Source of the DNA: an uncultured Pelotomaculum sp.
GTDB lineage: Bacteria > Bacillota > Desulfotomaculia > Desulfotomaculales > Pelotomaculaceae
Length of the DNA stretch: 64,000 nt
Assembly (NCBI GenBank): GCA_964498525.1
Contig: CAZCGU010000007.1
Span: forward strand, 47,405-111,404
Reading direction: 5' to 3'
This document shows, in pieces, positions 40,020 to 63,207 of this stretch; the stretch's first letter is position 1, and the number at the start of each line of letters is the position of its first letter. The notes under the pieces are model-generated. The model was given only the letters and a program-made list of their open reading frames with translations, made no database searches and had not been told where the DNA came from. Position numbers and translations under genes: made by a program.

Positions 40020-40982
40020 ATGTCGCATAGCTTTCATGTGGCCAAGTATGTATTGTCTTTAGAGGCGGGCAGGCAGGGCCTTTCCTTGCCGCCCTACAAG
40101 GGTTCGACCTTGAGGGGAGGCTTTGGCGCCGTCTTCAAGCGCATAGCATGCTCCTTACCGCACACCGGCTGCGGGGCCTGCCTGCTGAAATCAAGCTGCC
40201 CTTACGCCTACATTTTTGAAACAGCGCCGCCGCCGGGCTCCGGGGCGCTGCGCAACTACTCCAGCATTCCCCGCCCGTTTATCCTGGAACCGCCGCTGGA
40301 AACTAAGACAGAATACGCGCCGGGCGAAAAATTGTCTTTCAATTTGGTCCTGGTTGGCAGGGCAATCGGTTATCTGCCTTATTTTATTGTTGCTTTTCGG
40401 GAACTGGGTGAAATAGGCATCGGCCGGCAGCGCAAAAAATTCCGGTTGGATGAGATCAGGGCGATCAACCCGGTCAGCGGCGCCAGTGAAATAATTTACC
40501 AGGCGACAGAGCAGTTGATCAGGAATATGGAACCGGCCTGGATCGTTGATGCCAATAAGCTAACAAAGCCGGCGCCGGATATCCCGGCTGTCAGGCGTAC
40601 GGTCCTGGAGTTCCAGACGATGACCAGGCTGAAATTTGAGGAAAAGTATGTCCAGCGAGTGGAGTTCCATATACTGATGCGCAGCCTTTTGCGCCGTCTT
40701 TCATCACTGGCTTATTTCCATCACGGCTGGGAACCCGTGCTTGACTTTACCGGCTTGATTGAGCGCGCGGCCGCGGTGCGCCTGGCCCGGGACCAAACCA
40801 GGTGGGTGGACTGGGAACGCTACTCCGCGCGCCAGGATAGTAAAATGAACATGGGCGGCGTCGTCGGCCGGGTTACATATGAGGGAAATTTAAGTGAATT
40901 TATGCCCCTGCTGCGGCTAGGTGAGCTAACCCATGTAGGGAAGGGGGCGGTGTTCGGGATGGGGAAATTTATCATAAATTAA
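40020..40982 (+). CDS. cas6: CRISPR pre-crRNA endoribonuclease Cas6 (RAMP)
   Basis: Start taken at the ATG at 40020 (MSHSFHV...). KGSTLRGGFG near the N-terminus and the C-terminal glycine-rich loop HVGKGAVFGMGKF are typical of Cas6. Confidence 0.8.
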   Translation: MSHSFHVAKYVLSLEAGRQGLSLPPYKGSTLRGGFGAVFKRIACSLPHTGCGACLLKSSCPYAYIFETAPPPGSGALRNYSSIPRPFILEPPLETKTEYAPGEKLSFNLVLVGRAIGYLPYFIVAFRELGEIGIGRQRKKFRLDEIRAINPVSGASEIIYQATEQLIRNMEPAWIVDANKLTKPAPDIPAVRRTVLEFQTMTRLKFEEKYVQRVEFHILMRSLLRRLSSLAYFHHGWEPVLDFTGLIERAAAVRLARDQTRWVDWERYSARQDSKMNMGGVVGRVTYEGNLSEFMPLLRLGELTHVGKGAVFGMGKFIIN

Positions 40983-41424
40983 GGAAATACATGTTGACAT
41001 TTCTAACTCATAGGAGAGCTATTATGTGCGTGTGTGATTAGGTGGGGATTATCTGAAAAAGAGAAAGGCATCCAGATCGCGGATGCTATTTGTGGCGCTG
41101 CATCTAGGAATTTCAATAATATTGAAGCTCCAAGTTTTTTTAATCTTATAGAACATCTTAAACAGGGAGTTAAAGTGATTGATAAATAATTTAGCATAGC
41201 CTTTGTGTCACGGGCGCCCTATAAAGGGACTTACCCCGCACCTCTGCCCACATACTGCAGGCCGGCCATGCTAGTACTAAAATTATAAAGCTGTATACAA
41301 CATATTACACCTTTTTTTGTATGAATTACAACCAGTTTTTGCCCCGTTAATAAGGGGACAGAAAATTATTTTGCATGTAATTTTTTCACGATGACAAGGG
41401 TTTTAATAATTTTTTGGAAAAGAG

Positions 41425-42933
41425 GTGAGAAAAATATTAAATTACACAGGACACCCTTTTTTTGATGTCGGCTTAGCCACAGTGGCAGCCTTTGCGGGGA
41501 AATCTAACCCAGGTAAGCTTGGGGAAAATGACCTGGACGCAGCGGCCTCCTTTATAGAGCGCGAGTATGTCCGGGATCCCTTGAGGTCCTTTCTCGGCGT
41601 GGCTTTCACAACCAATGCCTGGTTTAATCAGCCGGCTTTTAGAGAACAACCTGAAAAACGCGATGATTACGCCAAAAGGATTTTAAGAAGCTACGGGAAA
41701 GGGCACCCCCTTGAAAGATGTGTTTTCACAGGCAAGCCGGCTGCTGCCGTTGCCTTCTCGGACAAGCTGCCGCCGGGGCGGGCCTACCGGCAGCACATCC
41801 CTTTACTTAGCGGAGAGGGAGTAGTTAATTTTTATCCGGCAGGGCGCACCGGCCTGCCGGTATCAGGTGAGGCGGCCTTATGCCTGCAGGCTTTTCCTCT
41901 GGGTTGCGCCAAATGCGGGGGCAGGCTGCTGACGGTCCACTCCGACAACCCGGACATTATCTATGATTTTGCCGCTGAATTTTTTGAGGAAAACCGCATG
42001 GCTATGTTGCTCGCAAGGCAGGCTGGCAGCAGCAAAATGCCAGAGGCCAAGATGACAGCCAAAACCCTTTTGATCCAAACCCTGCTGAAAATTGAGGATC
42101 GCCGCAGGGAGGAGAAAGGTGACCAGCGCCCTTCGTCCGTGACAGCCTATCACCTAACCAACAGCGGCCAGTCCAATCCCCTGGATGAGCGGAACCCGCC
42201 GCTGGAAATATACCACCTGCCCATTGAACTCACCGGTTTTCTTGGGCAGCTGGCCAGCCCTAACTACCGCGTTGAATGGAATGCTATTACCGGACGGGCC
42301 TGGCGTTTGGCGTTGCCCGCTAAAAAGAAAAAACGTGATGCCAGTGATGAAGTAGAAGACAAACGACCGAAAAGAAATTTCTTGTTTGAAGATTTGTTTA
42401 ATTTGCCGGACCAGGCCGGAAGGTTCATCCGCCGGTATTTCCTGCGTATTCCGGCGCGCCTAAAAACGGAGGATGACCCGCGCGGTTTTTATTCAATAAA
42501 AGACGATGCCAGTTTGATTTCCTGGAAAATTACTGACCTTTTTTTGAAAGAGGTGATGAGAGTGGAAAAGGAGCGCATTGAGCAAATTCGGGATTTGGGC
42601 GACCGGCTGGCTGCTTATGTTGCCGGCGAAAATGACCGCCGTTTCTTTACCGCCTTTTACAATGCCGGAAAGTATCCGCACCTGCGCAATACGCTTATAA
42701 AGGCCAACCTGGCCCATGTAAAGAGGGGCAACCCGCCGTTGGTAACTTTGGAGCCGTATATCCAGGTGTTTGAAGAGGGCTTTGATGTGGAACGGCCGGA
42801 CTGGCGGCTGGCCGCGGATCTTGTGTTAATAAGGATGATTGAGCAGCTTTATGAACTGGGCTGGCTGGGTAAAAACATTGATGCTCTGACTGAGCTCAAA
42901 GATAATCATGCATCAGAAAAGGGGGATTTGTAA
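41425..42933 (+). CDS. cas8b: type I-B large subunit, Cas8b/Cst1-like
   Basis: 502 aa, GTG start, positioned immediately upstream of cas7-cas5-cas3. The N-terminus GHPFFDVGLATVAAFAGK resembles Cst1. The call rests on position plus weak recall. Confidence 0.55.
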   Translation: MRKILNYTGHPFFDVGLATVAAFAGKSNPGKLGENDLDAAASFIEREYVRDPLRSFLGVAFTTNAWFNQPAFREQPEKRDDYAKRILRSYGKGHPLERCVFTGKPAAAVAFSDKLPPGRAYRQHIPLLSGEGVVNFYPAGRTGLPVSGEAALCLQAFPLGCAKCGGRLLTVHSDNPDIIYDFAAEFFEENRMAMLLARQAGSSKMPEAKMTAKTLLIQTLLKIEDRRREEKGDQRPSSVTAYHLTNSGQSNPLDERNPPLEIYHLPIELTGFLGQLASPNYRVEWNAITGRAWRLALPAKKKKRDASDEVEDKRPKRNFLFEDLFNLPDQAGRFIRRYFLRIPARLKTEDDPRGFYSIKDDASLISWKITDLFLKEVMRVEKERIEQIRDLGDRLAAYVAGENDRRFFTAFYNAGKYPHLRNTLIKANLAHVKRGNPPLVTLEPYIQVFEEGFDVERPDWRLAADLVLIRMIEQLYELGWLGKNIDALTELKDNHASEKGDL

Positions 42934-44003
42934 TGGCTTTTGTTACTGGCCTGCTGCTTGTTGACGCGCCGGCGTCAGCGCTGAATAATCTGGGCAATAT
43001 TCCAGGTGAACGTTTTGACAACAGCACCGGGGTCAAGGTAATCCGGACCAGGGAAGGCTATTACCCATATGTTTCCGCCCAGGCATTTAAATACTGGCTT
43101 CGCACAACCCTGGAACGCGACGCTGCGTGGAAGCCGGCGCCCATTTACCGTGAGGAAAAAATAGCCTACACGGACGCCAATCCGGTACGGTATTGGGACG
43201 ACGACCTGTTTGGTTATATGCGCGCACCCTCTAAACGCGAGTCGGCCCGGGCCAAGCGAGAATCCGACGAATCACGGGCTGGTGAAACAGAAACTACGGA
43301 CACGGTGACCAGGGCGGCGCCCTTCAGGGCCAGCACGCTGGTTTCCATTGCCCCGGTTACCCCGACAAGTGACTTCGGCGTGATGTCGCGGCACGAGGGC
43401 GACCCCGTACCGCACGAGCACCAGTTCTACCGCGCCACCTTGAAGGGCTTGTTTTCCCTGGATCTTAAGTCCGCCGGCACGTTCTGGTATAAAAATAAAA
43501 CAGGTTTTCGCAACCTGGACAACGTAAGAAAAGAAGAGGCGGCTGAACTGGGCCTGCTGCATATGGAGCAAGAAAAGGCCTATCGCTTGCCCCTGGAGGA
43601 ACGTGTTAAACGAGTTACTGCTCTTTTTGCCGGAATGTCCAGGCTGGATGGGGGAGCTATGCAGACACTGCATTATACTGATGTCACCCCGCCGTTGCTG
43701 ATTTTTGCCGTTACCAGGGGTGGCAACCATATTTTTAGTTACGTGCTGGGAGCAAACAAGAAGGGCTTGCCAGAGCTAAAAACGGAAGCGCTGGCTGAAG
43801 CGCTGGATATGTATAAGGAAGAAATCCTTTCAGATATTTATGTTGGCTGGGTACGCGGCTATCTGGATGAGGAACGGAAAGGGTTGGAAGATTTTATAGA
43901 GAAACATCAGGGCAAGGGGATATCCCTCTGCCACCCCCGGCAGGCTTTTGCGGGGTTAATCGAAGCCTTGCAAGCGCCGAAAAACGCGGCCTGGTTGGAA
44001 TAG
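42933..44003 (+). CDS. cas7: type I-B Cas7 (Cst2/DevR family)
   Basis: The N-terminus LLLVDAPASALNNLG... is the DevR/Cst2 signature. Its start overlaps the cas8 stop (TAATG). Confidence 0.8.
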   Translation: MAFVTGLLLVDAPASALNNLGNIPGERFDNSTGVKVIRTREGYYPYVSAQAFKYWLRTTLERDAAWKPAPIYREEKIAYTDANPVRYWDDDLFGYMRAPSKRESARAKRESDESRAGETETTDTVTRAAPFRASTLVSIAPVTPTSDFGVMSRHEGDPVPHEHQFYRATLKGLFSLDLKSAGTFWYKNKTGFRNLDNVRKEEAAELGLLHMEQEKAYRLPLEERVKRVTALFAGMSRLDGGAMQTLHYTDVTPPLLIFAVTRGGNHIFSYVLGANKKGLPELKTEALAEALDMYKEEILSDIYVGWVRGYLDEERKGLEDFIEKHQGKGISLCHPRQAFAGLIEALQAPKNAAWLE

Positions 44004-44012: not shown

Positions 44013-44771
44013 ATGGAGGTGCTGAAAATAGTAGCGGAGGGACTGACCACTTCGTTCCGCTACCCGCACTTTATGCAGGGCGTCCAGCCTACCTTTGAAA
44101 TGCCACCGCCTGCTACCATTTACGGACATATATGCAGCGCCCTGGGGGAATGGGCGCCGCCCGAGGGGATAAAATTCGCCTATCACTTTACCTATAAGGC
44201 TAAATTTGATGATGTTGAGCATGTCCACATCCTTACCTCCTCCAGCGGTAAGCTCCCGGGGACAAAACTGCCCAAAGTTATGAGCGGTTCGGTTAATCCC
44301 TTCAAGCGTACTGTTTTGTTCCGGCCGAGATTAATACTGTACATAAATAAACCGGAATGGGAGGACGCCTTCCTTTCACCAAGTTATCCCGTTGTTCTGG
44401 GCCGCTCCCAGGACCTGTTTACCTACACCATGGTCAGTAAAGTAAAGTTAAGTCTGACCAACAACGCCTATTTTGAGCATACACTGGCGCCCTACCGGAT
44501 GGCGCAGCAGACCGGGCGGGGCTATGCGGCGTTGATGCCGCGCTTTTTGGATTACGGCTGCGGGCGCAGACCCACGTTTGGCCGTTATGTGGTGTTGGGA
44601 CGGCGGGTATACGCGGCTGACTTCATCAGACATCAGGAACAAACGGAGGAGAAATATTGGGTTGATCCGGTATCGCCGGTAGAAAAGGACGTGCAGCTTG
44701 GATTGTTATTTCATACCTTTGTGGGGGATGACGATGATGACCAGCCTGTTATGGCCGGATTGGTTGGCTGA
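44013..44771 (+). CDS. cas5: type I-B Cas5 (Cas5t-like)
   Basis: LKIVAEGLTTSFRYPHFMQGVQPTFEMPPPATIYGHICSALG is the typical Cas5 N-terminal RAMP motif. Confidence 0.8.
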   Translation: MEVLKIVAEGLTTSFRYPHFMQGVQPTFEMPPPATIYGHICSALGEWAPPEGIKFAYHFTYKAKFDDVEHVHILTSSSGKLPGTKLPKVMSGSVNPFKRTVLFRPRLILYINKPEWEDAFLSPSYPVVLGRSQDLFTYTMVSKVKLSLTNNAYFEHTLAPYRMAQQTGRGYAALMPRFLDYGCGRRPTFGRYVVLGRRVYAADFIRHQEQTEEKYWVDPVSPVEKDVQLGLLFHTFVGDDDDDQPVMAGLVG

Positions 44772-47097
44772 TGTGTGGGCAAAAAGCCCGGAAAAAGAGG
44801 GGGCAGATGGAGAAAGCTTAGCCCGGCATACCTGGCTTGTATTGCAAAAGTTAGCCGGGATGATAGCGCTCCGCCCTGGTCTGCCGCAAATGGCCGGTTG
44901 CCCAGGTTTGTGGCAGACTCTATTCTGGGCTGCCCTGCTCCACGATTTTGGCAAAGCAGCGGAAGGCTTTCAGGGGGTGTTGCGGGGCGGACCGCGCTGG
45001 CCCCACCGGCACGAAGTACTTTCCTTAGCCTTCTTAGACTGGTTGGACAAAGGCTTTAGCGAAGAGGAAAATCTCTGGATGGCGGCGGCGATAGCCTACC
45101 ACCACAAGGACCCGGACGAAATATCCCTTTTATACATGGGGGGAGAAGATTGCTCCGAAGACGCACTGCAGGATCTGACAGCCGGGGTTGGTGAAAAGGT
45201 GCTGTCCGGTCTCTGGCAGTGGTTGGCCGCATGCGTGCCGGCGTGGATTGAAGAACTGGGTCTGGCTTCCGCCGGCGTGAGGATGGTGAATTTGCACCCC
45301 CGCGAACAAGCTCTGAAGCAGTTTACCAGCAGGGGGCCGGCCAACATCCGCAGGCTATTAAGTGACCTGCGGCGCTGGCTGCGCGGGACAGCAAGGTTCA
45401 GAAGGGAATTGACCGTGGGCACGCTAACGTTGCGCGGTCATATCGTTACCTGCGATCACGCCGCGTCAGCCCATGCCCAAAGGCTGGCAAAAATACAGCT
45501 AAGCGGCGCCGACGAATTGTTAAGTAAGTGGAAATTACCGGCAGAAAAAATGTATCCTCATCAAACGGCTTGTTTGCATACAAAGGGGTCGGCTATAATG
45601 ATTGCCCCCACCGGCAGCGGGAAAACTGAAGCGGCGCTTTTGTGGGCGGCAAACCAGGTCGACGGCAAGGGAGCATTTCCCCGGCTCTTCTATACCCTGC
45701 CCTATCAAGCAAGCATGAATGCCATGTACAGCCGTTTAAATCAAGTGAGCTTCCCCGGAATGGTGGGTTTGGAGCACAGCCGCAGCGTGCTCGCCCTTTA
45801 CAGGGGCTATTTGCAGGAGGATTACAGCAGGCGGCAGGCGGCCGGGATGGCGCGTTGGGCCAGGCAATTGTCACGCTTGCACCATTACCCGGTGCGGGTA
45901 TTAAGCCCCTATCAAATGCTTAAAGGATTTTACCGGTTAAAAGGGTACGAAGCTCTGCTGACGGATTTCCTGGAAGGGGCATTTGTTTTCGACGAAATTC
46001 ACGCCTATGATGTTAAACGGCTGGCGACCATCCTGGGAACGATAAAATACCTGCGGCAAAACTTTGGCGCCCGCTTTCTGGTTATGTCGGCGACGTTGCC
46101 TGGCCTGCTGCAAGCCAGGCTGGCGGAGGCAATGGGCACAAATCAGACCATACGGGCCACTCCGGCTATGTTCAGCAAATTCCAGCGCCACCGTTTGCTG
46201 ATGCTGGAAGGAGATCTACTGGAAGGGGACCGGCTTAAGCAGATTGCCGCTGCTGCCAGGGATGGCCAGAGTGTATTGGTTTGCTGCAATACCGTCAAAA
46301 GAGCCCAACAGGTTTATAGCCAGCTATCCGGCATCCTGACGGGCCATGTCCGGGTTGTGTTGCTCCACGGCAGGTTTAACGGGCGGGATCGTTTAGCCAA
46401 AGAAAGAATTGTCCAGGACAGCAGTGGTTCACAATCCAGAATGCGTCAGCCGCTTGTGCTGGTGTCTACACAAGTAGTAGAAGTGAGCCTGGATATTGAT
46501 TTAGACATGATTTATACTGACCCGGCCCCCCTGGAGGCTTTGATCCAGCGGTTTGGCCGGGTCAACCGCCGCCGGCTGAAAAAACGGGCGCCTGTATATG
46601 TATGCACAGAACCAAATGACGGGCAGCATGTTTATCTGGCGGATCTGGTGCTCAAATCTCTGGAAATCCTTAAAAGGAATGATGGAAAGATCATTGATGA
46701 AGGGGAAATTTCCAGCTGGTTGGACGAAATATACCAGGGCCGGGTAGCGGAGTGCTGGGATAACGAATTTAATCAGGTTTATAGTGAATTTGAAGCTAGT
46801 TGTTTGCGTACCATGCGTGCCTTTGATGCGAAAGAAAGCCTTGAAGAATTGTTTTACCGGGCCTTTGACAGCCTGGAAGTCCTGCCGGCTGCTCTTGAAA
46901 ACGAATATGAAGCTTTTTTGCGGGAGAACGAACCCCTGGAAGCCAGCCAACTGTTAGTTCCAATATCGTGGCAACGTTATAATATGCTTAGAAAAAAGGG
47001 ACTAGCAAGGGCCAGCGGGCGTGGCCGGCCTAAAATTGTTGAGGTGCCTTACAATAGTGAGGATGGATTGATGGATGTGCCGCAGGGGAAGCATTAG
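44728..47097 (+). CDS. cas3: Cas3 HD nuclease-helicase fusion
   Basis: HD domain (HTWLV...AALLHDFGKA...HRHEVLS...YHHKD). DEAD-box helicase motifs APTGSGKTEAAL, VFDEIHAY, MSATLP. Start taken at the ATG at 44728 after GGGGG; the track ORF begins at 44698. Confidence 0.85.
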   Translation: MTMMTSLLWPDWLADVWAKSPEKEGADGESLARHTWLVLQKLAGMIALRPGLPQMAGCPGLWQTLFWAALLHDFGKAAEGFQGVLRGGPRWPHRHEVLSLAFLDWLDKGFSEEENLWMAAAIAYHHKDPDEISLLYMGGEDCSEDALQDLTAGVGEKVLSGLWQWLAACVPAWIEELGLASAGVRMVNLHPREQALKQFTSRGPANIRRLLSDLRRWLRGTARFRRELTVGTLTLRGHIVTCDHAASAHAQRLAKIQLSGADELLSKWKLPAEKMYPHQTACLHTKGSAIMIAPTGSGKTEAALLWAANQVDGKGAFPRLFYTLPYQASMNAMYSRLNQVSFPGMVGLEHSRSVLALYRGYLQEDYSRRQAAGMARWARQLSRLHHYPVRVLSPYQMLKGFYRLKGYEALLTDFLEGAFVFDEIHAYDVKRLATILGTIKYLRQNFGARFLVMSATLPGLLQARLAEAMGTNQTIRATPAMFSKFQRHRLLMLEGDLLEGDRLKQIAAAARDGQSVLVCCNTVKRAQQVYSQLSGILTGHVRVVLLHGRFNGRDRLAKERIVQDSSGSQSRMRQPLVLVSTQVVEVSLDIDLDMIYTDPAPLEALIQRFGRVNRRRLKKRAPVYVCTEPNDGQHVYLADLVLKSLEILKRNDGKIIDEGEISSWLDEIYQGRVAECWDNEFNQVYSEFEASCLRTMRAFDAKESLEELFYRAFDSLEVLPAALENEYEAFLRENEPLEASQLLVPISWQRYNMLRKKGLARASGRGRPKIVEVPYNSEDGLMDVPQGKH

Positions 47098-47204: not shown

Positions 47205-48212
47205 ATGGAACTTCTTGTCTCCAACTACGGCTCCTTTCTGGGTAAAAAAAGCGAGCGGCTGATTTTAAAAGAAAACGGCAAAGTTGTTAACGAAATTCCT
47301 TTTCGCGACCTGGAGCAGGTGACCATCGACACCCCCGGCGCAAGTCTTTCTACCGACTTGATCAGGGAATGCGTGGAGCACGGCGTCCAGATTAGTTTTC
47401 TCACGCCTTCAGGAAAGCCCTTTGCCAAACTGGTTTCACCCTATCTGACCGGCACGGTTATTACCCGCCGCGAACAGCTTCTGGCCTTTACCGATGCCAG
47501 GGGTGTTGCCCTGGCTAAACTTTTTATTGAAGGCAAGTTAAAAAACCAGGCCAACGTACTGAAATACTTCTCCAAATACCGTAAAAGTGTGGACCGGAAA
47601 CTTTTTGAGGCTATATACACCAGGATCAACCAGATTGAACAAATAGCGGCGCAGCTTAGTGAGATCAAGGGCCGGTGCATAGACGATGTCCGGGGTCAGA
47701 TTATGTCCGCGGAAGGCCGGGCTGGAAACCTGTACTGGCAGGGTGTCAAAATGCTGACCGGGGATAAGATGGATTTCCCCGGGCGCGAGCACCGGGGCGC
47801 CGCCGATCCAGTCAATTCACTGCTGAATTACGGCTACGGCATGCTGTACCGGCAGGTGGAGGGCGCTTTAATATTAGCTGGCCTGGATCCCTTCGCCGGG
47901 TTTTTGCATGTGGACCGTCCGGGCAAGCTAAGCCTTGTCTACGATTTCGTTGAGGAATTCCGGCAGCAGGTGGTGGACCGGGTGGTGGTGGCCATGATCA
48001 ACAAAGGCATTGCCGTGGAAATGGAAGAAGGGATGCTTTCAACCGCTGCCAGGCGCCACCTGTCAGAGAAAATTAACGAAAGGCTGGAAAGCCAGGAGAA
48101 ATTCCGGGGCAAAAAATATAAGCTGCGCACCATTATCCAGAGCCAGGCCCGCCGGATTGCCACATTTTTACGCGGCGAGGCTAAATACCGGCCTTTTGTC
48201 GGCGGGTGGTAA
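47205..48212 (+). CDS. cas1: CRISPR integrase Cas1
   Basis: 335 aa. LLNYGYGMLY, GLDPFAGFLH and LVYDFVEEFR are conserved Cas1 blocks. Confidence 0.9.
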   Translation: MELLVSNYGSFLGKKSERLILKENGKVVNEIPFRDLEQVTIDTPGASLSTDLIRECVEHGVQISFLTPSGKPFAKLVSPYLTGTVITRREQLLAFTDARGVALAKLFIEGKLKNQANVLKYFSKYRKSVDRKLFEAIYTRINQIEQIAAQLSEIKGRCIDDVRGQIMSAEGRAGNLYWQGVKMLTGDKMDFPGREHRGAADPVNSLLNYGYGMLYRQVEGALILAGLDPFAGFLHVDRPGKLSLVYDFVEEFRQQVVDRVVVAMINKGIAVEMEEGMLSTAARRHLSEKINERLESQEKFRGKKYKLRTIIQSQARRIATFLRGEAKYRPFVGGW

Positions 48213-48213: not shown

Positions 48214-48480
48214 TTGAAGACCCTGGTTATTTACGATATCGAAGAGGATCGAATCCGCGGTAAAATATTCGAGGCCTGCAAAGATTACGGTTTAACTCAC
48301 ATCCAGTATTCGGCTTTTTTTGGTGAACTGAACCATAACCGCAGGGATGAGCTGAGGCAAAGAATTAAAAAGACTCTGGGTAGAAAAAACGGCAAAATAT
48401 TAATCTGCCCTGTATGCGACAAGGATCTGAGGCTCCTCACGGTAATCAATGTTGAGCCTGGAGGCATCCCGGATGCTTAA
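48214..48480 (+). CDS. cas2: Cas2
   Basis: TTG start 2 nt after the cas1 stop. 88 aa: LKTLVIYDIEEDRIRGKIFEACKDYGLTHIQYSAFFGEL, the Cas2 ferredoxin-fold pattern. Confidence 0.8.
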   Translation: MKTLVIYDIEEDRIRGKIFEACKDYGLTHIQYSAFFGELNHNRRDELRQRIKKTLGRKNGKILICPVCDKDLRLLTVINVEPGGIPDA

Positions 48481-49976: not shown

Positions 49977-49979
49977 AAT

Positions 49980-54924: not shown

Positions 54925-56465
54925 AGGCATTGTCTTACCAGATCCATCTGCTGAGTCCCTTACTGGCGACCCAACTCAGCGCGGGTGAAGAGAACAGTTC
55001 CAAGTCCTTTAACTATATTCCAGGCAGCATGCTGCGCGGTGCTTTGATAAATTTGTACCTGCGGGAACGTCGGGCGCAAAAGCAGGGGACTTATGACCCG
55101 GCACTGGATCCCGTCTGCCGCAGGCTCTTCTTTGATGGTACAAACTGTTACTTAAACGCCTACCCCGTTGACAATAACTTCTACCGGACTATACCCAAAC
55201 CGCTTTCCTGGTATATGAAAAAAGAGGAATTAGAAGATGACAACGGTACTGTTTATGACTTGGCATTAGAAGAAGTCGAGAACCTTAAGCCTTGCCCCGG
55301 ATGCTTTTACTCGCTGGATGGAGATATTGCGTATTTAGTTAAAACCAGCAGCAGCCTGTCAATGCACAACGCCAGCGCAGGGCGTATGGTCAGGCTAAAG
55401 GACAGGAGTACGGTATACTGTTACGAAGCTATTGCCGCCGGCCAGGTTTTCGGCGCCGCGGTTGTGTCAAAAAATGTCAGCGATCTGAATCTGCTGAAAT
55501 CGTGGATGGAGAACAGGCAGATTGCAATTGGTGGTTCAAAAAGTGCGGGGTATGGCCGGGTTGTTTTTAGGGAAACCAGGATACACGATGCCTGGAACGA
55601 GTGTGAACAACAAGGTGCACAGCGGAAAGGGGAGCTTGTTCTGACCCTGTTAAGCGATCTTATTTTCCGGAACAAGAACGGACATTATACAACAGACCTG
55701 GATGAAATCCTCGGCTGTAAACATGAGCGTGCATATCAATCAACTAGAATTGTCGGGGGATTTAACCGCAAATGGGGTTTGCCGCTGGTTCAGGTCCCCG
55801 CTGTACAGGCCGGCAGCGTTTTCGTATACCGGGCCGGGGATATTGCTCAGGGTGTTCTTGAACAGTATCTTGCCGAGGGTATCGGGGACCGCCGGGTGGA
55901 GGGTTTTGGCCGCATTGCCATTAATCTTAATAGGCATAATATTCTGAGCAAGTTTGCATGTGACAGGCCTAACCTGCTCAGAGACGATAAACTGCCTTTA
56001 TCCGGTGAGAGTACGGAACTGGCCGGGAGACTGGCAGTAAGGCGGCTGAAAAAAACGTTGGACGGAAGATTGTTAGAGGCCATAGACCGTTTAGATATAA
56101 TACATTTTCCCCCGGAGAAATCCCAGTTAAACCGCCTGAGGGAGGTAGCAAAACAGGCCCTGCGCCAGGATCAGCCTGAAATTATCACCAACTACTTAAA
56201 TGATATGGGTGAAACAGGCGCAAGACAATTTAAACGCGCCAGGATCACGGGCAATAGAAGGCTTTCTACCTGGCTTAAGAAGGACATTAAGGATGAAAAG
56301 ATATGGAAGGACTATCTTGGATTAGAACAAAAACCAGGAATTGTCTCTGTAGCTGGTGTTTCGGCAGAAATCACAAAAGAAATAAAGCTTGAATACACCG
56401 TACGATTGCTGGAGGCAGTGCTGAAAAAGACCGTTAAAAAGCTACAGGAGGAAAGTGTCTTATGA
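54921..56465 (+). CDS. csx10: Csx10-like Cas5-family RAMP with helical C-terminal extension (possible fused Cas11)
   Basis: IPGSMLRGALINLY and IGGSKSAGYGRV RAMP motifs, with G-rich GFGRIAIN. The last ~170 aa are predicted alpha-helical (LAGRLAVRRLKKTLDGRLLEAIDRL...). Confidence 0.6.
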   Translation: MKALSYQIHLLSPLLATQLSAGEENSSKSFNYIPGSMLRGALINLYLRERRAQKQGTYDPALDPVCRRLFFDGTNCYLNAYPVDNNFYRTIPKPLSWYMKKEELEDDNGTVYDLALEEVENLKPCPGCFYSLDGDIAYLVKTSSSLSMHNASAGRMVRLKDRSTVYCYEAIAAGQVFGAAVVSKNVSDLNLLKSWMENRQIAIGGSKSAGYGRVVFRETRIHDAWNECEQQGAQRKGELVLTLLSDLIFRNKNGHYTTDLDEILGCKHERAYQSTRIVGGFNRKWGLPLVQVPAVQAGSVFVYRAGDIAQGVLEQYLAEGIGDRRVEGFGRIAINLNRHNILSKFACDRPNLLRDDKLPLSGESTELAGRLAVRRLKKTLDGRLLEAIDRLDIIHFPPEKSQLNRLREVAKQALRQDQPEIITNYLNDMGETGARQFKRARITGNRRLSTWLKKDIKDEKIWKDYLGLEQKPGIVSVAGVSAEITKEIKLEYTVRLLEAVLKKTVKKLQEESVL

Positions 56466-57949
56466 GCGGGCGGTGGCGGGATTCCCGGATGATACAGGAG
56501 CGGGTTATTGTTACGGGCGACATGGTTTTGGAAACGCCTGCTTTGTTGGGCAGTGGGGACGCGGAGGGACTGGTTGACATGCCTCTGCTCATTGACCCGC
56601 TGGAAGGCCGGGCACTGCTGACTGGTTCTTCTATTGCGGGCGCCTTGCGTAATTATCTGCGCAGGTACAACAGTGGTCTGGCGGAAATAATATTTGGCAG
56701 TGAGATGCCAGGCAAGTCAAGTATTGCAGAGTGCTGGCCGGGCAACCTGTGGCAGGAAATAACAAATAATGCGGGTGAGGCGCAAGGTTGCACGCAGAGC
56801 TTGCTGTTTGTGGACGATGCGCTGGGAGATATGCCGGTGGTGGAGCTGCGTGACGGTGTAGCTGTTAATCCCCGCACCGGCACAGCTGAGGATGGGGCCA
56901 AATATGATCTGGAGCTGTTGGCGGCTGGTTCGCCTTTTAAGATTTCCCTTGAACTGCTGGTGCTTAAGGGCATGGATAAAAAAATGTTATTCGAAGGCCT
57001 GGCGCTTGCCCTGCAGGGGCTGGGCAAAGGGGAAATCGCACTTGGCGGCAGGAAGAGCCGGGGGTTCGGTCGCTGTAAGATTAGAAATTGGCAAGTGGTT
57101 CGTTATGATCTGACCGGACCGGAGGGAATGCTGTCCTGGCTGGCAAACAGTCAGGCCAATTGTTTGTATGGCCCGGATGTGGCCAGCCTGTTGGGGGTAA
57201 GCCTCCTGGAAAGGCCAATCCCTGACAAATTCACCCTTCAGGCGTCATTTACTATCAATGGTTCACTAATTAACCGCTCGCCGGGGCATTTCAGATCATC
57301 CCCGTCTCCCGGCAGGGAATCCATACAGGCGGTTGCCTGCCTGCCGGACACGGCGCACCTGCATTCCAGGCGGGATGGTGACTATGTGCCTGTGGCAAGC
57401 GGTACCAGCCTGGCGGGGGTATTGCGTTCCCGGGCCATTAAAATTGCCAACACGCTCGGTAAAGATGCTTACTCACTAACTAACAACATATTCGGCTACC
57501 GGCGCAAAGACCATAAGGATAAAACAAAACCTGCCGCCAGCCGTCTGTGGGTGGAGGAAACAGTGATTCAAAATCCTGTGCCGCTGGTACAGAGCAGGAT
57601 AATAATTGACCGTTTTACAGGCGGGGCTTATCCCGGCGCTCTTTTTGATGAACAGCCTGTGTTTGGCAAAGATGACACTTCACTGGAAGTAAAGCTAAGT
57701 CTGGACAACCCCGAGAATTGTGAAATTGGCCTGCTTTTATTGCTTTTAAAGGATTTATGGACCGGTGACCTGGCTTTGGGCGGCGAAAGTGCCATAGGGC
57801 GCGGCCGGCTGAGCGGAAAAAAGGCCGGATTGGCCTATGCTGGCGAGCAATGGACAATTGTTCAGGCGCCGGATGGGACTATTCAGGTAGAAGGTGATGC
57901 GAGCAAGCTGGAGGAATTTGTCCGGAGCTGCGGGGAGGTAATGGATTGA
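56462..57949 (+). CDS. double-RAMP Cas7 fusion (Cas7-2x)
   Basis: Two RAMP units: LTGSSIAGALRNYL...GGRKSRGFGR and ASGTSLAGVLRSRA...GGESAIGRGR. Confidence 0.65.
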   Translation: MSGRWRDSRMIQERVIVTGDMVLETPALLGSGDAEGLVDMPLLIDPLEGRALLTGSSIAGALRNYLRRYNSGLAEIIFGSEMPGKSSIAECWPGNLWQEITNNAGEAQGCTQSLLFVDDALGDMPVVELRDGVAVNPRTGTAEDGAKYDLELLAAGSPFKISLELLVLKGMDKKMLFEGLALALQGLGKGEIALGGRKSRGFGRCKIRNWQVVRYDLTGPEGMLSWLANSQANCLYGPDVASLLGVSLLERPIPDKFTLQASFTINGSLINRSPGHFRSSPSPGRESIQAVACLPDTAHLHSRRDGDYVPVASGTSLAGVLRSRAIKIANTLGKDAYSLTNNIFGYRRKDHKDKTKPAASRLWVEETVIQNPVPLVQSRIIIDRFTGGAYPGALFDEQPVFGKDDTSLEVKLSLDNPENCEIGLLLLLLKDLWTGDLALGGESAIGRGRLSGKKAGLAYAGEQWTIVQAPDGTIQVEGDASKLEEFVRSCGEVMD

Positions 57950-58578
57950 TACGGGAAGATCATTGGGATTGTAATGTGAAAACTCTTTCTACTGATGGTT
58001 TTGTGTCTGACCCGGCGGTTTGGTTTAGCGAGCATTCTATGCACTCTATGCAGGGCCGGTACGCCCTGTTCCTGGCGCACGCCGACGATGGTGTGATCTG
58101 GGGCCGGTTGCAGAACAATCAGCTGCTTACTTCAAGTCAATTGTTCAAACGCTACGAGATTTCAATTTCACCCCCGTTGAGAGCAGACACCTTACAGGAT
58201 GCCTATTTGTTTTGTGAAGCCGGGGAGATCCGGGTGTGGCGAAGTGAAAGAGGGTTTCAGGCCTGTAGTTTGCACGATGTGTCCAAAGAAGAAGCCCATT
58301 CCTTTGATGAGAAGCAGATTCTCTGGGGTACCCGGATTGAAGACAGGGAACAAGGCTTCACCCTGTTAGCAGACGGGAGGCAGGGGCTGCGGCACGCTGT
58401 GCCGCTGGATATCCCGGCATCGAGTTTCGGTGACGGAAAAGGTCTTTACAGGCCATTGCGGTTAATTTTGCGACATTATTTGGCCTATAGCGAAGATGGC
58501 TGTGCCCGGATCTATCTGAGCCGCTTGCTGGACCTGCGGTGTGAACCCATACAGAAGAAAGGTGGGATTAAGAGATGA
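57946..58578 (+). CDS. csx19: Csx19-like (TIGR03984-type) type III-D accessory subunit
   Basis: 210 aa, translationally coupled on both sides. LFLAHADDGVIWGRL fits my recollection of Csx19. Its position between Cas7-2x and the large RAMP matches III-D variant loci. Confidence 0.5.
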   Translation: MIREDHWDCNVKTLSTDGFVSDPAVWFSEHSMHSMQGRYALFLAHADDGVIWGRLQNNQLLTSSQLFKRYEISISPPLRADTLQDAYLFCEAGEIRVWRSERGFQACSLHDVSKEEAHSFDEKQILWGTRIEDREQGFTLLADGRQGLRHAVPLDIPASSFGDGKGLYRPLRLILRHYLAYSEDGCARIYLSRLLDLRCEPIQKKGGIKR

Positions 58579-60557
58579 ACCCCAGGCACAACAACCCGAC
58601 CGGACCGGGGCGCATCGCGCACGCGCCTTATAATTTTGTGCCCTTACCAGAGAGAGCGGTTCCGGCCGAACAGAATTTACCGGATATGGACCGGTATTAC
58701 CATGAACGTTATACCGGAGTCATTGAATGTGAAATCATGACTGAGTCGCCGGTTTATGTGAGGGGAATGAGCGAGCCGGATTCTTATGCGGAGTTTAAGA
58801 AGACACGCTTGCACAAAATGAGCGATGAAAGAAAGCGGCAGTACGCGCGCTTTTATAGCCTGGATAACAACGGGCTTCCTGCTATCCCCGGCAGTTCCCT
58901 GCGCGGGATGGTCCGATCTATTGTTGAGGTTGCAGCTTACGGCAAAATGCAGTGGGTGACAAATAAGCCGCTGGTGTTCCGGGCAGTTGGAGACACCTCT
59001 AGTTTGGGGGTTTATTATCGAAAACTACTCATGCGGGACGATGAAGGCGGAAGAAAATTTACCCCCCTGGTGCAGGCAGGCTATCTGGTTAAGGAAAAGG
59101 ATCGCTGGTTTATCAAGCCTGCGCTGTCTGTACAAGGCGTAACCTTTGCGCGCATTCATAAGGAAAAGATACCGCCAAGTCTACCAACATGGCACGAGTG
59201 TAAGAATGCAAGATGTATCTGGATAAAGCCCGGTGATTATGATTACCAGAAGGTCAGAGGCTATCTGCAATTGAAGTACTTGCCAGTTTCGGATGCCAGG
59301 AGTTCACCTGCTGAAGGTTTTATGAAAGCGATCTTGGTCAGAAGTGGTAATATACCAAAGAAAAAAATGGAGGCGGTAATCTTCCCACCAGATGAATCAG
59401 TTCCTGTATCCAAACAAATTGAAATAAACGATGAAATTCTTCAACGCTATCGCGAGCAGGTAAGCCAGCAGCAGGAATGCCTGCTGGGAGGGAAGGATGG
59501 GGCTTTAAGGCCTTATCAACCTGTGTTTTATTTACTTAAAAACGGGGTTCTGGTATTTTTTGGCCATACTATGATGTTTCGTCTGCCTTATGAAAAAACC
59601 CCCCATGATTTTATTCCGCCGAGCCTTCGTCCGGAAACTTCAGAGGTTAATCTTGACATGACTGAGGCCATTTTTGGATTTGCTCCCAAAGGAAATAAGG
59701 ACAGGTGTGCTTCCCGCGCCGGCCGGATATCTTTTTGTGACGCTATGTTAAACCCTGGTGAAGAAGACATCTGGCTTTCAGACCATCCGATAATTCCTAA
59801 AATTCTAAGTGGGCCAAAACCAACCGCCTTTCAGCATTACCTCACCCAACAGCAGCCGGACAAGGTGCCCACTGGTTTGCGAGACAAAAATGGTTTGCCT
59901 AAATTGGCGTTGCGGCTGGATCATTACGCCAGTCCACCGCCGCACGATACAGTGATCCGAGGACATAAATTTTACTGGCATAAAGGTCAGGTCCGCTTAT
60001 CTGACATAAAGGATAAAGAACAGTATAATTTACAGATCGACAAGCAGCACACGCTTTTTTCACCGGTAAAGCCGGGCGTTAAATTTCATAGCATGATACA
60101 TTTTGAGAATTTGTCTAAAGTGGAATTGGGCGCTATCTTATGGGCGCTTCTTTTACCCGGCGAGCATGGTAAGGAATACCGGCACAAAATCGGTATGGGT
60201 AAGCCGCTTGGCCTGGGTTCAATAAAAATAATTCCGAAACTGTTTCTTGATAATAGAAAAAGCCGTTATGAGCGGTTGTTTAGCGGTCAAGACTGGCATC
60301 AAGCCAGGAGCTTTAATGAGGACTTGTATGGTTTTATAAATGTTTTTGAAGAATATGTGCTGAAAGAATTATGCCCGGAGGATCGCCAGGGTGCTAATAA
60401 GCTATCAAAAACAAAGAGGATTCAAATGTTTCTTAAGTTGCTGGAGTGGCCGGGTTTGAAAGACCGCGAACTTACCGAGTATATGAATATAAATGAATTC
60501 CGTCCAGTACTGCCTGATCCACTGCATGTCGTAAAGAATAACAAACAATGCCCTTAA
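58575..60557 (+). CDS. large RAMP protein (TIGR03986-type; Cas7 with insertion)
   Basis: HAPYNFVPLPE N-terminus, IPGSSLRGMVRS RAMP motif, C-terminal GMGKPLGLGS glycine loop. 660 aa with a long internal insertion. Confidence 0.7.
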   Translation: MNPRHNNPTGPGRIAHAPYNFVPLPERAVPAEQNLPDMDRYYHERYTGVIECEIMTESPVYVRGMSEPDSYAEFKKTRLHKMSDERKRQYARFYSLDNNGLPAIPGSSLRGMVRSIVEVAAYGKMQWVTNKPLVFRAVGDTSSLGVYYRKLLMRDDEGGRKFTPLVQAGYLVKEKDRWFIKPALSVQGVTFARIHKEKIPPSLPTWHECKNARCIWIKPGDYDYQKVRGYLQLKYLPVSDARSSPAEGFMKAILVRSGNIPKKKMEAVIFPPDESVPVSKQIEINDEILQRYREQVSQQQECLLGGKDGALRPYQPVFYLLKNGVLVFFGHTMMFRLPYEKTPHDFIPPSLRPETSEVNLDMTEAIFGFAPKGNKDRCASRAGRISFCDAMLNPGEEDIWLSDHPIIPKILSGPKPTAFQHYLTQQQPDKVPTGLRDKNGLPKLALRLDHYASPPPHDTVIRGHKFYWHKGQVRLSDIKDKEQYNLQIDKQHTLFSPVKPGVKFHSMIHFENLSKVELGAILWALLLPGEHGKEYRHKIGMGKPLGLGSIKIIPKLFLDNRKSRYERLFSGQDWHQARSFNEDLYGFINVFEEYVLKELCPEDRQGANKLSKTKRIQMFLKLLEWPGLKDRELTEYMNINEFRPVLPDPLHVVKNNKQCP

Positions 60558-60658: not shown

Positions 60659-61975
60659 ATGGGGGCACAATATATTATGAAGGTTTTAATACTTACTGTG
60701 GGCGGATCGGATACCCCGGTTGTTAACTGTATAAAAAACTACCATCCGAATTACGTGGTTTTTCTCTGTACCGAAGATAATAACGATAACATGGGCAGCC
60801 GGAAAATGATCGACGGCGGGGATATTGTAAAAAAAGAGCGACCCTGCAAAAAATGCAATTATAAAAATGTTAGTAAAAAAGATAATATTGTTAACCAATG
60901 CGGTCTGAGCAATGATTATGCTATTCACGTGGTGCCTCATGACGACCCCAATAAGTGCTATGAAACCGCATTCAATTTGATAAAAAATTTTATCAGCGAG
61001 GGGCATGAAATCACAGTTGACTATACGGGCGGGACAAAATCAATGTCCGTTGGCCTGGCTGTAGCGGCTATGGAATTTCCCCAGTGCAATTTGAGCGTTG
61101 TTAAGGGTATAAGGCAGGACTTGGATAGGATTAGGGACGGAATGGAGGTGGTCTCAAGATTACCATCTCATGCTGTTTTTACAAAAAGGCAAAAAAGGCT
61201 GTGCCGGGATTTAATCAGCCAATACAACTACGCCGCCGCTGTTCGAATTTTAGAGGAGTTAAGCACCCTGGGTTTTGTTGATGATGAAAAATATTTTAGA
61301 AGACAGCTAATACTTTGCCGTAGTTTTGCTGCCTGGGACAAATTTGATTATCACAAAACGGTGGAAATGATGAACATTTATAAAAGAGATCCGCTGATCA
61401 CCGAATATTATGCTGTGCTCAGGCAAATTTGTGCCACACTGGAATGGTACGGAGAAGGGGCTACGGAAATCAAAAAGGCTCCCCCCGTTTTTATGCTTGT
61501 TTATGATGTTCTGCTAAACGCTGAACGAAGAGCTTATCAAGGCCATTACGATGACGCTGTGTCCAGAATGTACAGGGCATTAGAGATGTATGGACAATTT
61601 TGTCTCCGTACAGGTGAGCCGCAACTGACCAGTGAGGATGTAGATGTATCATTGATACCTGAACAACACCGTGAATATTATGAAAAGAAACGAGGCGCAA
61701 GGGGCAAAATCCAGATCGGTTTGATCGATGATTATGAACTGCTAGCTATACTTGGCCATCCGGTTAAGCAGCTATGGGAAAGCTGGCGGGATAAGATAAA
61801 AGGGGTTCTAAATAAAAGGAACAACAGTTTTTTGGCACATGGCATGAAACCTGTTTCATGTAAAGAATATACTGAAATGAAAGAAATAATATGGGGTTTT
61901 ATATCGGGTTGTGATAAGATTATGACGATAAGGAATGGTTTTTCCGAATCAAAACAGTTTCCACTGGAGATATAA
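60659..61975 (+). CDS. CARF-domain protein (TIGR02710-type) with C-terminal HEPN-like R-x6-H motif
   Basis: KVLILTVGGSDTPVV and VDYTGGTKSMSV CARF motifs. C-terminal helical domain with KRNNSFLAHG. An alternative start is the ATG at 60677. Confidence 0.65.
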   Translation: MGAQYIMKVLILTVGGSDTPVVNCIKNYHPNYVVFLCTEDNNDNMGSRKMIDGGDIVKKERPCKKCNYKNVSKKDNIVNQCGLSNDYAIHVVPHDDPNKCYETAFNLIKNFISEGHEITVDYTGGTKSMSVGLAVAAMEFPQCNLSVVKGIRQDLDRIRDGMEVVSRLPSHAVFTKRQKRLCRDLISQYNYAAAVRILEELSTLGFVDDEKYFRRQLILCRSFAAWDKFDYHKTVEMMNIYKRDPLITEYYAVLRQICATLEWYGEGATEIKKAPPVFMLVYDVLLNAERRAYQGHYDDAVSRMYRALEMYGQFCLRTGEPQLTSEDVDVSLIPEQHREYYEKKRGARGKIQIGLIDDYELLAILGHPVKQLWESWRDKIKGVLNKRNNSFLAHGMKPVSCKEYTEMKEIIWGFISGCDKIMTIRNGFSESKQFPLEI

Positions 61976-62043: not shown

Positions 62044-62100
62044 ATGGCCCCTTCTTTGCTATGACTTTTATCCATATAATTTGCCGTGCTACGGATAGAA
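62044..62100 (+). pseudogene. remnant of the 3' end of a csa1-like gene
   Basis: CATGGCC..TGCTATGA..TCCATATAATTTGC.GTGC.ACGG.TAGAATAAAAAGAGGG parallels 49925-49990, the end of csa1 plus its stop. Confidence 0.6.
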
Positions 62101-62272
62101 TAAAAAGAGGGTTTTTGCCGTGTCGGCTGAGAGATAGATATTATTGGTTTTTTCGCAAAAGGAGGGGGTTTTGGAGCAGAAAAGGGTTTTGCGAAAATTT
62201 AAGCTTGTAAGGTCCTATTTGGTATCTAAAAAAACCAGTGATATCAAGGATTTACCCTGAACACCCGGGTCG
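62101..62272 (+). promoter_or_regulatory. CRISPR array 2 leader (paralogue of the array 1 leader)
   Basis: Shared blocks AATAAAAAGAGGGTTTTTGC, ATTGGTTTTTTCGCAAAAGGAGGGGGTTTTG.AGCAGAAAAGGG.TTTGCGAAA, TTGGTATCTAAAAAAACC and CAAGGATTT.CCC. Confidence 0.7.
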
Positions 62273-63207
62273 GTTACACTGCCAATCCCGATAACAAGGG
62301 GACTAAAATTATAAAAATCATATTTAAAATAACGATCCAAATTAAGTGTTACACTGCCAATCCCGATAACAAGGGGACTAAAATAGGTTTCCAATACGAG
62401 CCCGGCGGAGAATACGAGCATTGTTACACTGCCAATCCCGATAACAAGGGGACTGAAATTTTGGCCAGTAAAGAAGAGGAAATCCTGGACGCGCTGAGTT
62501 ACACTGCCAATCCCGATAACAAGGGGACTGAAATGTACCAACGAGTGTCGCCTGGGGGCGGGCAATTTGACCGTTACACTGCCAATCCCGATAACAAGGG
62601 GACTGAAATGCTGGGATAAGAGGCAGCGGTACGCCAAGCAGGAACGGGGTTACACTGCCAATCCCGATAACAAGGGGACTGAAATACGAAGAAGCCACGC
62701 AGGCCATGAAGCTGGGGGGCGGTATTGTTACACTGCCAATCCCGATAACAAGGGGACTGAAATACGCAATCAGAAGGGCCTTCATCCACGATATGAGGTT
62801 AGTTACACTGCCAATCCCGATAACAAGGGGACTGAAATGAATTTACGATCATGGCGTCAAATTCCACTCCAATATGTTACACTGCCAATCCCGATAACAA
62901 GGGGACTGAAATTGACAATGTAGGGTCTGGTTACGATAACCAGGTAGATGTTACACTGCCAATCCCGATAACAAGGGGACTGAAATCCAATCCACCTTGG
63001 GGCGGAGTTTTTCCTCCGCCCAGCGTTACACTGCCAATCCCGATAACAAGGGGACTGAAATACCAAAACATGCACCATCACCTTCACTTGCACCGAGTTA
63101 CACTGCCAATCCCGATAACAAGGGGACTGAAATTTCAGAATATAGTGTTAAGCGCCTCATACCCCGCCCTGTTACACTGCCAATCCCGATAACAAGGGGA
63201 CTGAATC
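62273..63207 (+). CRISPR. CRISPR array 2: 13 repeats of 37 bp, 12 spacers of 35-41 bp
   Basis: Consensus GTTACACTGCCAATCCCGATAACAAGGGGACTGAAAT. Repeat starts: 62273, 62348, 62423, 62498, 62573, 62649, 62727, 62802, 62876, 62950, 63025, 63097, 63171. The first two repeats end ..GGGGACTAAAAT. The last is degenerate (..CTGAATC). Confidence 0.97.

Follow-up and report, generated by a model that had tools for sequence, protein, structure and literature searches.

A stretch of 64 000 nucleotides (nt) from an uncultured Pelotomaculum sp. (GenBank assembly GCA_964498525.1, contig CAZCGU010000007.1, positions 47,405 to 111,404), hereafter the window, carries a composite CRISPR-Cas locus in which a type I-B and a type III-D system appear to depend on the same Cas6 and the same spacer acquisition genes. 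The components all lie on the + strand, in the order cas6, cas8b-cas7-cas5-cas3, cas1-cas2-cas4-csa1, an array of 12 repeats (array 1), a type III-D effector operon and an array of 13 repeats (array 2). The explanation that best fits these data, and which we consider probable, is that they represent one chromosomal super-locus of a Pelotomaculum-like member of the Bacillota from anaerobic sludge, in which the type I-B system, the adaptation module and array 1 form a scaffold, and a III-D cassette has been attached downstream with an array of its own. The sequence was present in sludge and bioreactor metagenomes. On the same scaffold, a III-A cassette was carried by five to six related species and this III-D cassette by one. 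As these type III cassettes were never accompanied by a cas6 or cas1 of their own, we infer, with good support, that Cas6 and the spacer acquisition module are common to the I-B and III-D systems. It is already known that type I and type III systems can have Cas6, adaptation genes and arrays in common, and this 'communal array' arrangement was reportedly set out by Makarova in 2015.

To locate any further processing or adaptation genes the window was extended by walking a 174.8 kb Joint Genome Institute (JGI) metagenome contig, so that the search covered ~91 kb, comprising the window, 10 kb upstream and 17 kb downstream. Single copies of cas6 and of the adaptation module were observed across this distance. 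No second cas6 or cas1 was found in positions 1-39900 of the window, neither cas6 nor cas1/cas2 was found within the III-D cassette, and the 10 kb upstream and the 17 kb downstream contained no cas genes. The claim of a preliminary description of this DNA, that there is a single cas6 and a single adaptation set, thus holds for ~91 kb, and the second module whose presence just outside the window that description had allowed for was looked for in the flanking 10 kb and 17 kb and was not there.

Relatives of the locus were collected in a Csa1 scan, taking one genome per species, and 80 loci were obtained. The nearest csa1 homologues were those of Pelotomaculum sp. PtaB.Bin104 and Candidatus (Ca.) Syntrophopropionicum ammoniitolerans (both 92% identical), followed by P. 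propionicicum (85%). These identities point to a Pelotomaculum-like syntroph as the host, in keeping with the kinds of metagenome in which the sequence occurs. A conserved cas1-cas2-cas4-csa1 cassette was present in ~55 Bacillota loci, with an array following in the loci that were examined. A complete I-B operon headed by the same cas6 family was found upstream in nine of these loci, in the order cas6-cas8b-cas7-cas5-cas3-cas1-cas2-cas4-csa1. A type III-A cassette (csm1, csm2, csm3 and csm4 with a CARF-HEPN gene) was located directly upstream of cas1 in Pelotomaculum sp. PtaB.Bin104 (L006), a Desulfofundulus sp. (L010), Bacillota bacterium HKB214 (L034) and Dethiobacter spp. (L038 and L051), and in L006 and L010 it followed cas3. 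Neither cas6 nor cas1 was found within these III-A cassettes and no second array was seen; one array was present downstream of csa1 in L006, L034 and L038, and none within the examined stretch of L010. The cassette of L006 occupies positions 1998-7981 of that locus, and csm5 was not seen in these III-A cassettes.

Among the loci of the Csa1 scan the III-D cassette recurred in only one species, Ca. S. ammoniitolerans, where the order is array, card1, cas10, cas7, csx10, cas7-2x, csx19, cas7-insertion, csm6, an array of 16 repeats, cas1-cas2-cas4-csa1, an array of 22 repeats and then housekeeping genes. This cassette likewise contained no cas6 or cas1. The Ca. S. ammoniitolerans contig (L086) begins, at positions 1-410, inside a third array with the repeat GTTGCAGTACCACTCCCGCTGACAAGGGGACTGAAAG, just upstream of the card1-III-D cassette, and the cassette is therefore flanked by arrays in this species too. 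Between the window and the relative L007 the III-D proteins were 60-77% identical and the adaptation proteins 85-91% identical. These data suggest that type III cassettes lacking processing and adaptation genes have been attached repeatedly to a I-B scaffold, which offers strong, if circumstantial, support for sharing.

The arrays were located by Tandem Repeats Finder, a repeat finder and a pattern search; the repeat pattern gave 0 matches in shuffled sequence. Each effector module is followed by its own array, as had been described previously. Array 1 (50166..51026, + strand) consists of 12 repeats of GTTACACCGCTAATCCCGATAACAAGGGGACTGAAAG, the last of them degenerate, and 11 spacers of 37-40 nt, nine of which are unique, and array 2 (62273..63207, + strand) consists of 13 repeats of GTTACACTGCCAATCCCGATAACAAGGGGACTGAAAT, again with a degenerate last repeat, and 12 unique spacers of 35-41 nt. 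Both arrays close with their degenerate repeat on the 3' side, which places the leaders upstream and transcription on the + strand. The 37-nt consensus repeats are identical at 34 of 37 positions (92%); positions 8, 11 and 37 account for the three differences that had been reported between them. The predicted hairpin (U14-C17 with G26-G29; UCCC-N9-GGGG), the predicted cleavage site and seven of the eight tag nucleotides (ACUGAAA) are the same in both repeats, as would be anticipated of a common Cas6 site and tag. A cut at the predicted site, 8 nt from the 3' end of the repeat, would yield the 5' tags ACUGAAAG from array 1 and ACUGAAAU from array 2. The sequence CCCG-N-GGGGACTGAAAG was conserved in every array found next to a csa1 homologue in the relatives.

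The first two, leader-proximal, repeats of array 2 carry a private G33A substitution (ACTAAAAT), and the spacers adjoining them differ. The presence of the same substitution in the two newest repeats fits an integrase that duplicates the first repeat, and array 2 has probably been fed recently, by one spacer integration after G33A arose. Array 2 was identical in other assemblies of the locus, and Logan contigs ended within the arrays. In array 1, spacer 3 is the same as spacer 5, with one spacer between them (50316-50575), and spacer 8 is the same as spacer 9, in tandem (50689-50873); these duplications are likely to have come from recombination or slippage, or from repeated uptake of one protospacer.

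The two leaders are also related. Leader 1 (49935..50165, + strand) overlaps the last 42 nt of csa1 and contains a TATAAT box and an inverted repeat, TTTCGCAAA (50044-50052) and TTTGCGAAA (50081-50089), spaced as TTTCGCAAA-N28-TTTGCGAAA. Leader 2 (62057..62272, + strand) contains an inverted repeat with 11 bp arms, TTTTCGCAAAA (62150-62160) and TTTTGCGAAAA (62187-62197). The paralogy claimed for the leaders was evident on alignment (identity 0.81, or 81%, over 230 nt), and the leader-repeat junction is GGTCG|GTTAC in both. Leader 2 opens with a relic of the 3' end of csa1, 42 nt in length (62057-62098), of which 35 of 42 nt match positions 49935-49976, the stop codon included. Because the homology between the leaders extends 42 nt into csa1, leader 2 is best read as a copy of a unit made up of the csa1 3' end and the leader, which points to an origin of leader and array 2 from a csa1-adjacent leader-array unit of the array 1 type. 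The leader of the cassette array in Ca. S. ammoniitolerans also holds a csa1 relic.

Two leaders of one genome were closer to each other (0.81 and 0.88) than were leaders of different genomes (0.73-0.77). Together with the divergence of the III-D proteins, this within-genome likeness suggests either gene conversion or the independent capture of a resident leader by cassettes that were acquired separately. Concerted evolution within genomes was considered as a general description and rejected; it fits the leaders and does not clearly fit the repeats, the two arrays of L007 differing at 6 positions. Six leaders, drawn from four genomes, had the inverted repeat in almost unchanged form, and every leader compared (window, L006, L007 and L008) had the sequence TTT(T)CGCAAA(A)-N26-28-TTT(T)GCGAAA(A) at ~80-120 nt upstream of its first repeat. 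This element may serve to bind a protein or may form a hairpin in the leader RNA. A promoter scan of both leaders was uninformative; the TATAAT box, which lies in the piece shared with the csa1 end, may act as the array promoter.

In the mechanism that we propose, the single Cas6 would bind the UCCC-N9-GGGG hairpin of both repeats and cut 8 nt before the repeat end, generating CRISPR RNAs (crRNAs) with the tags ACUGAAAG and ACUGAAAU. Such crRNAs would be used by Cascade (Cas8b/Cas7/Cas5) for DNA targeting dependent on a protospacer-adjacent motif (PAM), with recruitment of Cas3. The III-D complex, consisting of a Cas10 without an HD domain, Cas7, Csx10, Cas7-2x, Csx19 and Cas7-insertion, would bind crRNAs of the same kind, trim them and cleave complementary transcripts; in the Synechocystis III-Dv homologue the crRNA is trimmed to about 37 nt. 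The GGDD palm of Cas10 would then make cyclic oligoadenylates (cOA), which would switch on a Card1/Can2-like nuclease and a Csm6-like HEPN RNase. New spacers would be inserted at both leader-repeat junctions by Cas1-Cas2, with Cas4 and Csa1 serving in PAM selection and orientation.

Several observations weigh against this scheme. The hairpin predicted for the repeats is weak, its folding being no better than that of shuffled sequence, and the case for it is therefore founded on the conservation of CCCG...GGGG across relatives and not on energy. The only RNA match was a metatranscriptome contig of 270 nt, 100% identical to positions 49831-50100 (the 3' end of csa1 and the beginning of leader 1), which gives a weak hint that this region is transcribed and is too short to show processing. 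Protospacers that might have displayed a common PAM for both arrays were sought with the 21 unique spacers in INPHARED phages and PLSDB plasmids, and no usable match was obtained; nor was any obtained with four spacers in IMG/VR, or with all spacers in the window and in all the other loci collected. Arrays 1 and 2 have no spacer in common, and no spacer was shared with the arrays of any relative. The two tags differ at one nucleotide, the last, which is G in array 1 and U in array 2 and is invariant within each array. Loading of each complex from both arrays is therefore no more than a possibility. The U of array 2 is the derived state, as all relatives have G at this position, with C in one case. 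Lastly, the check for single copies spans ~91 kb, and a cas6 or cas1 farther away may exist.

The tag difference could bias crRNA loading, and it is central to the alternative that survives best, according to which Cas6 and the integrase are shared and the spacer pools are separate, the III-D complex taking array 2 crRNAs (ACUGAAAU) and Cascade those of array 1 (ACUGAAAG), with no layering of immunity on the same spacers. The fixed and derived final tag nucleotide, the absence of a common spacer and the position of each effector module beside its own array all accord with such a division. However, type III complexes are generally promiscuous in their choice of crRNA (PMC5576922), and the complexes of Pyrococcus furiosus use all arrays (PMC7293040). 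All three arrays of Ca. S. ammoniitolerans, moreover, end in ACTGAAAG. Beside the III-A cassettes of L006, L034 and L038 only one array was found, so the III-A complexes of these organisms must use the array adjacent to csa1. We regard separate pools as unlikely, and as the most plausible of the competing explanations.

It is very improbable that the III-D complex is served by a dedicated cas6, adaptation module or both elsewhere in the genome, its nearness to the I-B system being coincidental. Many Bacillota carry several CRISPR-Cas loci, the span of the search would accommodate such a module, and in Synechocystis the III-Dv system comes with a cas6-2a and adaptation genes of its own, but none was present within ~91 kb, the repeat and leader of array 2 are near-copies of those of the I-B array, csa1 relic included, and the III-D cassette is without both genes in its one relative as well. 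Decay of either system to a remnant, which would leave a single functional effector and no layered immunity, is likewise very improbable, for although array 1 has duplicated spacers and both arrays are short, all 17 open reading frames (ORFs) are full length against their profiles, Cas3 matches both HD and helicase profiles, the GGDD motif of Cas10 and the HEPN motif of the Csm6-like protein can be read in the sequence, and several independent metagenome assemblies carry identical proteins and an identical array 2.

The gene identities on which shared use of Cas6 and the integrase depends were taken from NCBIfam, Pfam and PADLOC, which annotated 17 of 17 genes in agreement, and structural relatives were taken from the PDB; unless stated otherwise genes are on the + strand. 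cas6 (40020..40982) encodes 320 amino acids (aa) from the ATG at 40020, in an ORF open from 39957, and matched PADLOC Cas6 PDLC01477 (1.4e-105, residues 25-340) and Pfam PF10040 (4.6e-22). A C-terminal glycine-rich loop, GKGAVFGMGKF, was read from the sequence, and no sequence relative of Cas6 was found in the PDB. The 440 bp between cas6 and cas8b (40983-41424) are non-coding; the corresponding gap in relatives is roughly 200 to 650 bp, estimated from gene starts and assuming a cas6 of ~960 bp. cas8b (41425..42933), the Cst1-type large subunit of type I-B, matched PADLOC Cas8b over its full length (2.8e-185) and TIGR01908 (28.6 bits against a cut-off of 19.4). cas7, of the Cst2/DevR type (42933..44003), matched TIGR02585 (8.7e-50, 169.6 bits against a cut-off of 72.75). 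cas5 (Cas5t/Cas5b, 44013..44771) matched TIGR01895 at 85.2 bits (4.7e-24), under the cut-off of 96.7, and the Cas5 domain TIGR02593 at 43.5 bits against a cut-off of 17.8. cas3 (44698..47097) encodes HD nuclease and helicase in one protein (TIGR01587, 5.6e-73; TIGR01596 HD, 6.3e-22), and its true start is probably slightly downstream of 44698. The locus thus has the Cas8b, Cas7, Cas5 and single-protein Cas3 of a type I-B system, and its operon is headed by cas6, the product of which is predicted to act as the nuclease.

The adaptation module consists of cas1 (47205..48212; TIGR00287, 9.3e-82), cas2 (48214..48480; TIGR01573, 9.8e-13), cas4 (48449..49045; TIGR00372, 2.7e-35) and csa1 (49056..49976; TIGR01896, 2.4e-59, 201 bits against a cut-off of 103), the last encoding a second Cas4-family nuclease. 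The start of cas2, a TTG at 48214, was read from the sequence and gives a product of 88 aa, equal in length to the gene called in L086. The PADLOC and TIGR profile matches bear out the cas8b-cas7-cas5-cas3 module of the preliminary description, and the TIGR profiles its cas1-cas2-cas4-csa1 set at 47205-49976.

The III-D effector operon begins with cas10 (52682..54274), which encodes 530 aa and matched PADLOC Cas10d (4.6e-133) and PDB 8S9T_C (4.8e-27). Its FGGDD cyclase motif is retained and was aligned with the GGDD of 8S9T_C. Residue 6 is aligned to residue 20 of the Synechocystis III-Dv Cas10, with the palm domain first; as the protein starts directly at the palm, it is a Cas10 without an HD domain. 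The following gene, cas7 (54271..54924, 217 aa), matched PADLOC Cas7_IIId (8.1e-68) and residues 6-142 of PDB 8S9T_A, where the Cas7-Cas5-Cas11 fusion of III-Dv has its N-terminal Cas7 domain. csx10 (54921..56465, 514 aa), with Cas5 and Cas11 domains, matched PADLOC Cas5_IIId (4.5e-136), TIGR02674 (7.1e-41, below the equivalog cut-off) and residues 376-775 of PDB 8S9T_A. cas7-2x (56462..57949), a double Cas7 fusion of the Csx7 family, matched PADLOC Cas7_IIId PDLC02111 (1.5e-123) and PDB 8S9T_D (2.4e-17). csx19 (57946..58578) matched TIGR03984 (9.9e-31, 106.7 bits against a cut-off of 35) and PADLOC Csx19 (3.1e-33), and had no sequence match in the PDB. cas7-insertion (58575..60557), a TIGR03986/all1473-type repeat-associated mysterious protein (RAMP), matched TIGR03986 (7.1e-127, 425 bits against a cut-off of 161) and, in the PDB, the III-D2 Cas7x3 protein 9WXH_D (1.1e-19) somewhat better than 8S9T_E (8.5e-15).

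The HD-less Cas10 together with csx10, csx19 and the all1473/TIGR03986 RAMP is characteristic of type III-D, and the double Cas7-2x fusion and the insertion-containing Cas7 are those of III-Dv. The Cas7-Cas5-Cas11 protein of III-Dv, however, is here divided between one ORF at 54271-54924 and another at 54921-56465, a cas7/csx10 split that is also seen in the relative L086. As this first fusion is still two genes both here and in L086, we place the module, on its gene content, as III-Dv-like and intermediate between III-D1 and III-Dv ('split III-Dv'), within the series that has been described (PMC11026444 and PMC13294483). Assignment to III-D2, with its SAM-AMP (S-adenosylmethionine-AMP)/CorA route, was rejected, as Cas7x3, a Cas7-5 fusion and CorA are all absent and the effectors that accompany the complex are of the CARF type.

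The gene identities given previously for the operon at 52682-60557 are upheld, but the module is larger than was described, with two CARF genes, one on each side of the operon, that had been missed. The upstream gene (51489..52667) encodes a Card1/Can2-like protein with CARF and PD-(D/E)xK nuclease domains, matching PADLOC CARF_PDDEXK (2e-106), Pfam PF09002 and PF23400, and in the PDB the DUF1887 protein 8Q3Y (6e-27) and Can2 7BDV (4e-08). The downstream gene (60659..61975) encodes a Csm6-like CARF-6H-HEPN RNase, matching TIGR02710 (2.6e-57), Pfam PF09670 (3.5e-29) and PADLOC CARF_HEPN (1.6e-129), in which the HEPN motif RNNSFLAH was read. The intact GGDD of the HD-less Cas10 and the presence of two CARF-domain effectors lead to the prediction that the III-D complex signals by cOA; the SAM-AMP/CorA route of III-D2 does not fit this combination.

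According to Silas et al. (PMC5576922), Cas1-Cas2 and Cas6 are missing from many III-B, III-C and III-D systems, which occur alongside type I systems and have communal arrays with them. The present locus resembles that of P. furiosus (I-B/Cst and III-B/Cmr, also I-A) in having, over the ~91 kb searched, one cas6 and one adaptation set with two Cas4-family proteins, and in a predicted 8-nt crRNA tag of the xxUGAAAG type. In P. furiosus this tag reads AUUGAAAG. All complexes in that organism can use common arrays. Its single cas6, single adaptation set (cas1-cas2-cas4-1/cas4-2) and seven shared arrays serve I-A, I-B and III-B systems (PMC7293040). The two differ in that the type III partner here is III-D and not III-B, with a Cas10 lacking HD and two CARF effectors; the host belongs to the bacteria (Bacillota), the cassette comes with a slightly diverged array of its own and a duplicated leader, and sharing is something that we infer.

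The effector itself is most usefully compared with the III-Dv complex of Synechocystis sp. PCC 6803 (PDB 8S9T-8S9X; PMC11026444), which it resembles in the HD-less GGDD Cas10, Cas7-2x, Csx19, Cas7-insertion and a Csm6-type accessory gene. The Synechocystis subunits were the best PDB matches throughout, except for Cas7-insertion (9WXH_D first, 8S9T_E second) and Csx19 (none), and the Synechocystis repeat ends in GGGGACTGAAAC (PMC11026444), similar to the GGGGACTGAAAG/T found here. In Synechocystis, however, Cas7-Cas5-Cas11 is a single fused protein, in place of the 217-aa cas7 and 514-aa csx10 products, and the system has cas6-2a and adaptation genes of its own, neither of which is in the present cassette.

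A type III cassette that has no Cas6 and relies on that of a co-resident type I system has a parallel in Marinomonas mediterranea I-F/III-B and in the Marinomonas sp. MWYL1 chimera (PMC5576922), and the use by type III of crRNAs borrowed from type I has been proposed to provide a PAM-independent back-up against escape mutants (PMC5576922). The subtypes in M. mediterranea are I-F and III-B, as opposed to I-B and III-D; its III-B repeats are unlike the I-F repeats and the III-B module has its own reverse transcriptase (RT)-Cas1, whereas in the present locus the two repeats show 92% identity and one integrase was found over ~91 kb. The I-B and III-A loci of the Desulfotomaculia described above (L006, L010, L034, L038 and L051) have the same cas1-cas2-cas4-csa1-array scaffold, with csa1 50-92% identical; there the type III cassette is upstream of cas1, whereas here it is of type III-D, lies downstream of array 1 and comes with a second one.

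A more general scheme can be put forward tentatively, and we would not rate it as likely. In Pelotomaculum-like Desulfotomaculia, the I-B genes, Cas6 and Cas1-Cas2-Cas4-Csa1 may constitute a fixed scaffold for interchangeable III-A and III-D cassettes, with the III-D cassette copying the resident unit of csa1 3' end, leader and repeat independently in each genome, and with the tag U of array 2 perhaps biasing crRNAs towards III-D. Independent copying of the resident leader unit would explain why leaders are closer within genomes than between them.

The first 39.9 kb of the window hold an integrative element of phage-like character, genes for a VWA protein, a sensor kinase, an ABC transporter and a TetR regulator, and a four-gene defence operon (21357-30680). 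The products of this operon are an ATPase with DUF499, a DUF3780 protein, a methyltransferase-like protein with DUF1156 and a helicase of the SNF2-PLD type, and with the CRISPR locus it makes the region a defence island. The 10 kb upstream hold the integrase, primase and helicase of the integrative element and an RNase PH gene, and the 17 kb downstream encode STAS and MatE proteins, a methyltransferase, a SpoIIE phosphatase, a 1609-aa helicase and an ABC transporter. The integrative phage-like element spans window positions 1-~10400 and positions 1-10000 of the upstream sequence (L088). Its upstream part encodes a tyrosine integrase, a helix-turn-helix protein, a primase/DnaB-like protein and a DEAD helicase; inside the window it encodes a 1315-aa protein with a phage minor-tail domain (949-4896) and a ParE/RelB pair (~9744-10381, - strand). 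A spacer from a Syntrophomonadaceae metagenome-assembled genome (L029) matched the integrase region of the element at 28 of 32 positions (L088 3311-3342 / L089 1589-1620; E = 0.007), a weak match that is possibly due to chance. Scans of metagenomes with Cas7-2x and with a degenerate repeat pattern gave no matches, the collection scanned evidently being without this contig.

Current understanding is unchanged by these data, as sharing between type I and type III systems is already established experimentally in other organisms, and what modest interest the locus has lies in its split III-Dv layout, its two CARF effectors and its csa1 relic. The split layout contributes a further stage to the route that has been proposed to lead from multi-subunit III-D1 to single-protein III-E effectors, and the relic in leader 2 documents the making of the second array. 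The difference of three positions between the repeats provides a simple system in which to ask how crRNAs are chosen by Cascade and by type III complexes. The source group, the syntrophic propionate oxidisers of anaerobic digesters, is environmentally important, and in this locus it would offer a clean natural example of a III-D effector reliant on a I-B system for both guide processing and spacer uptake.

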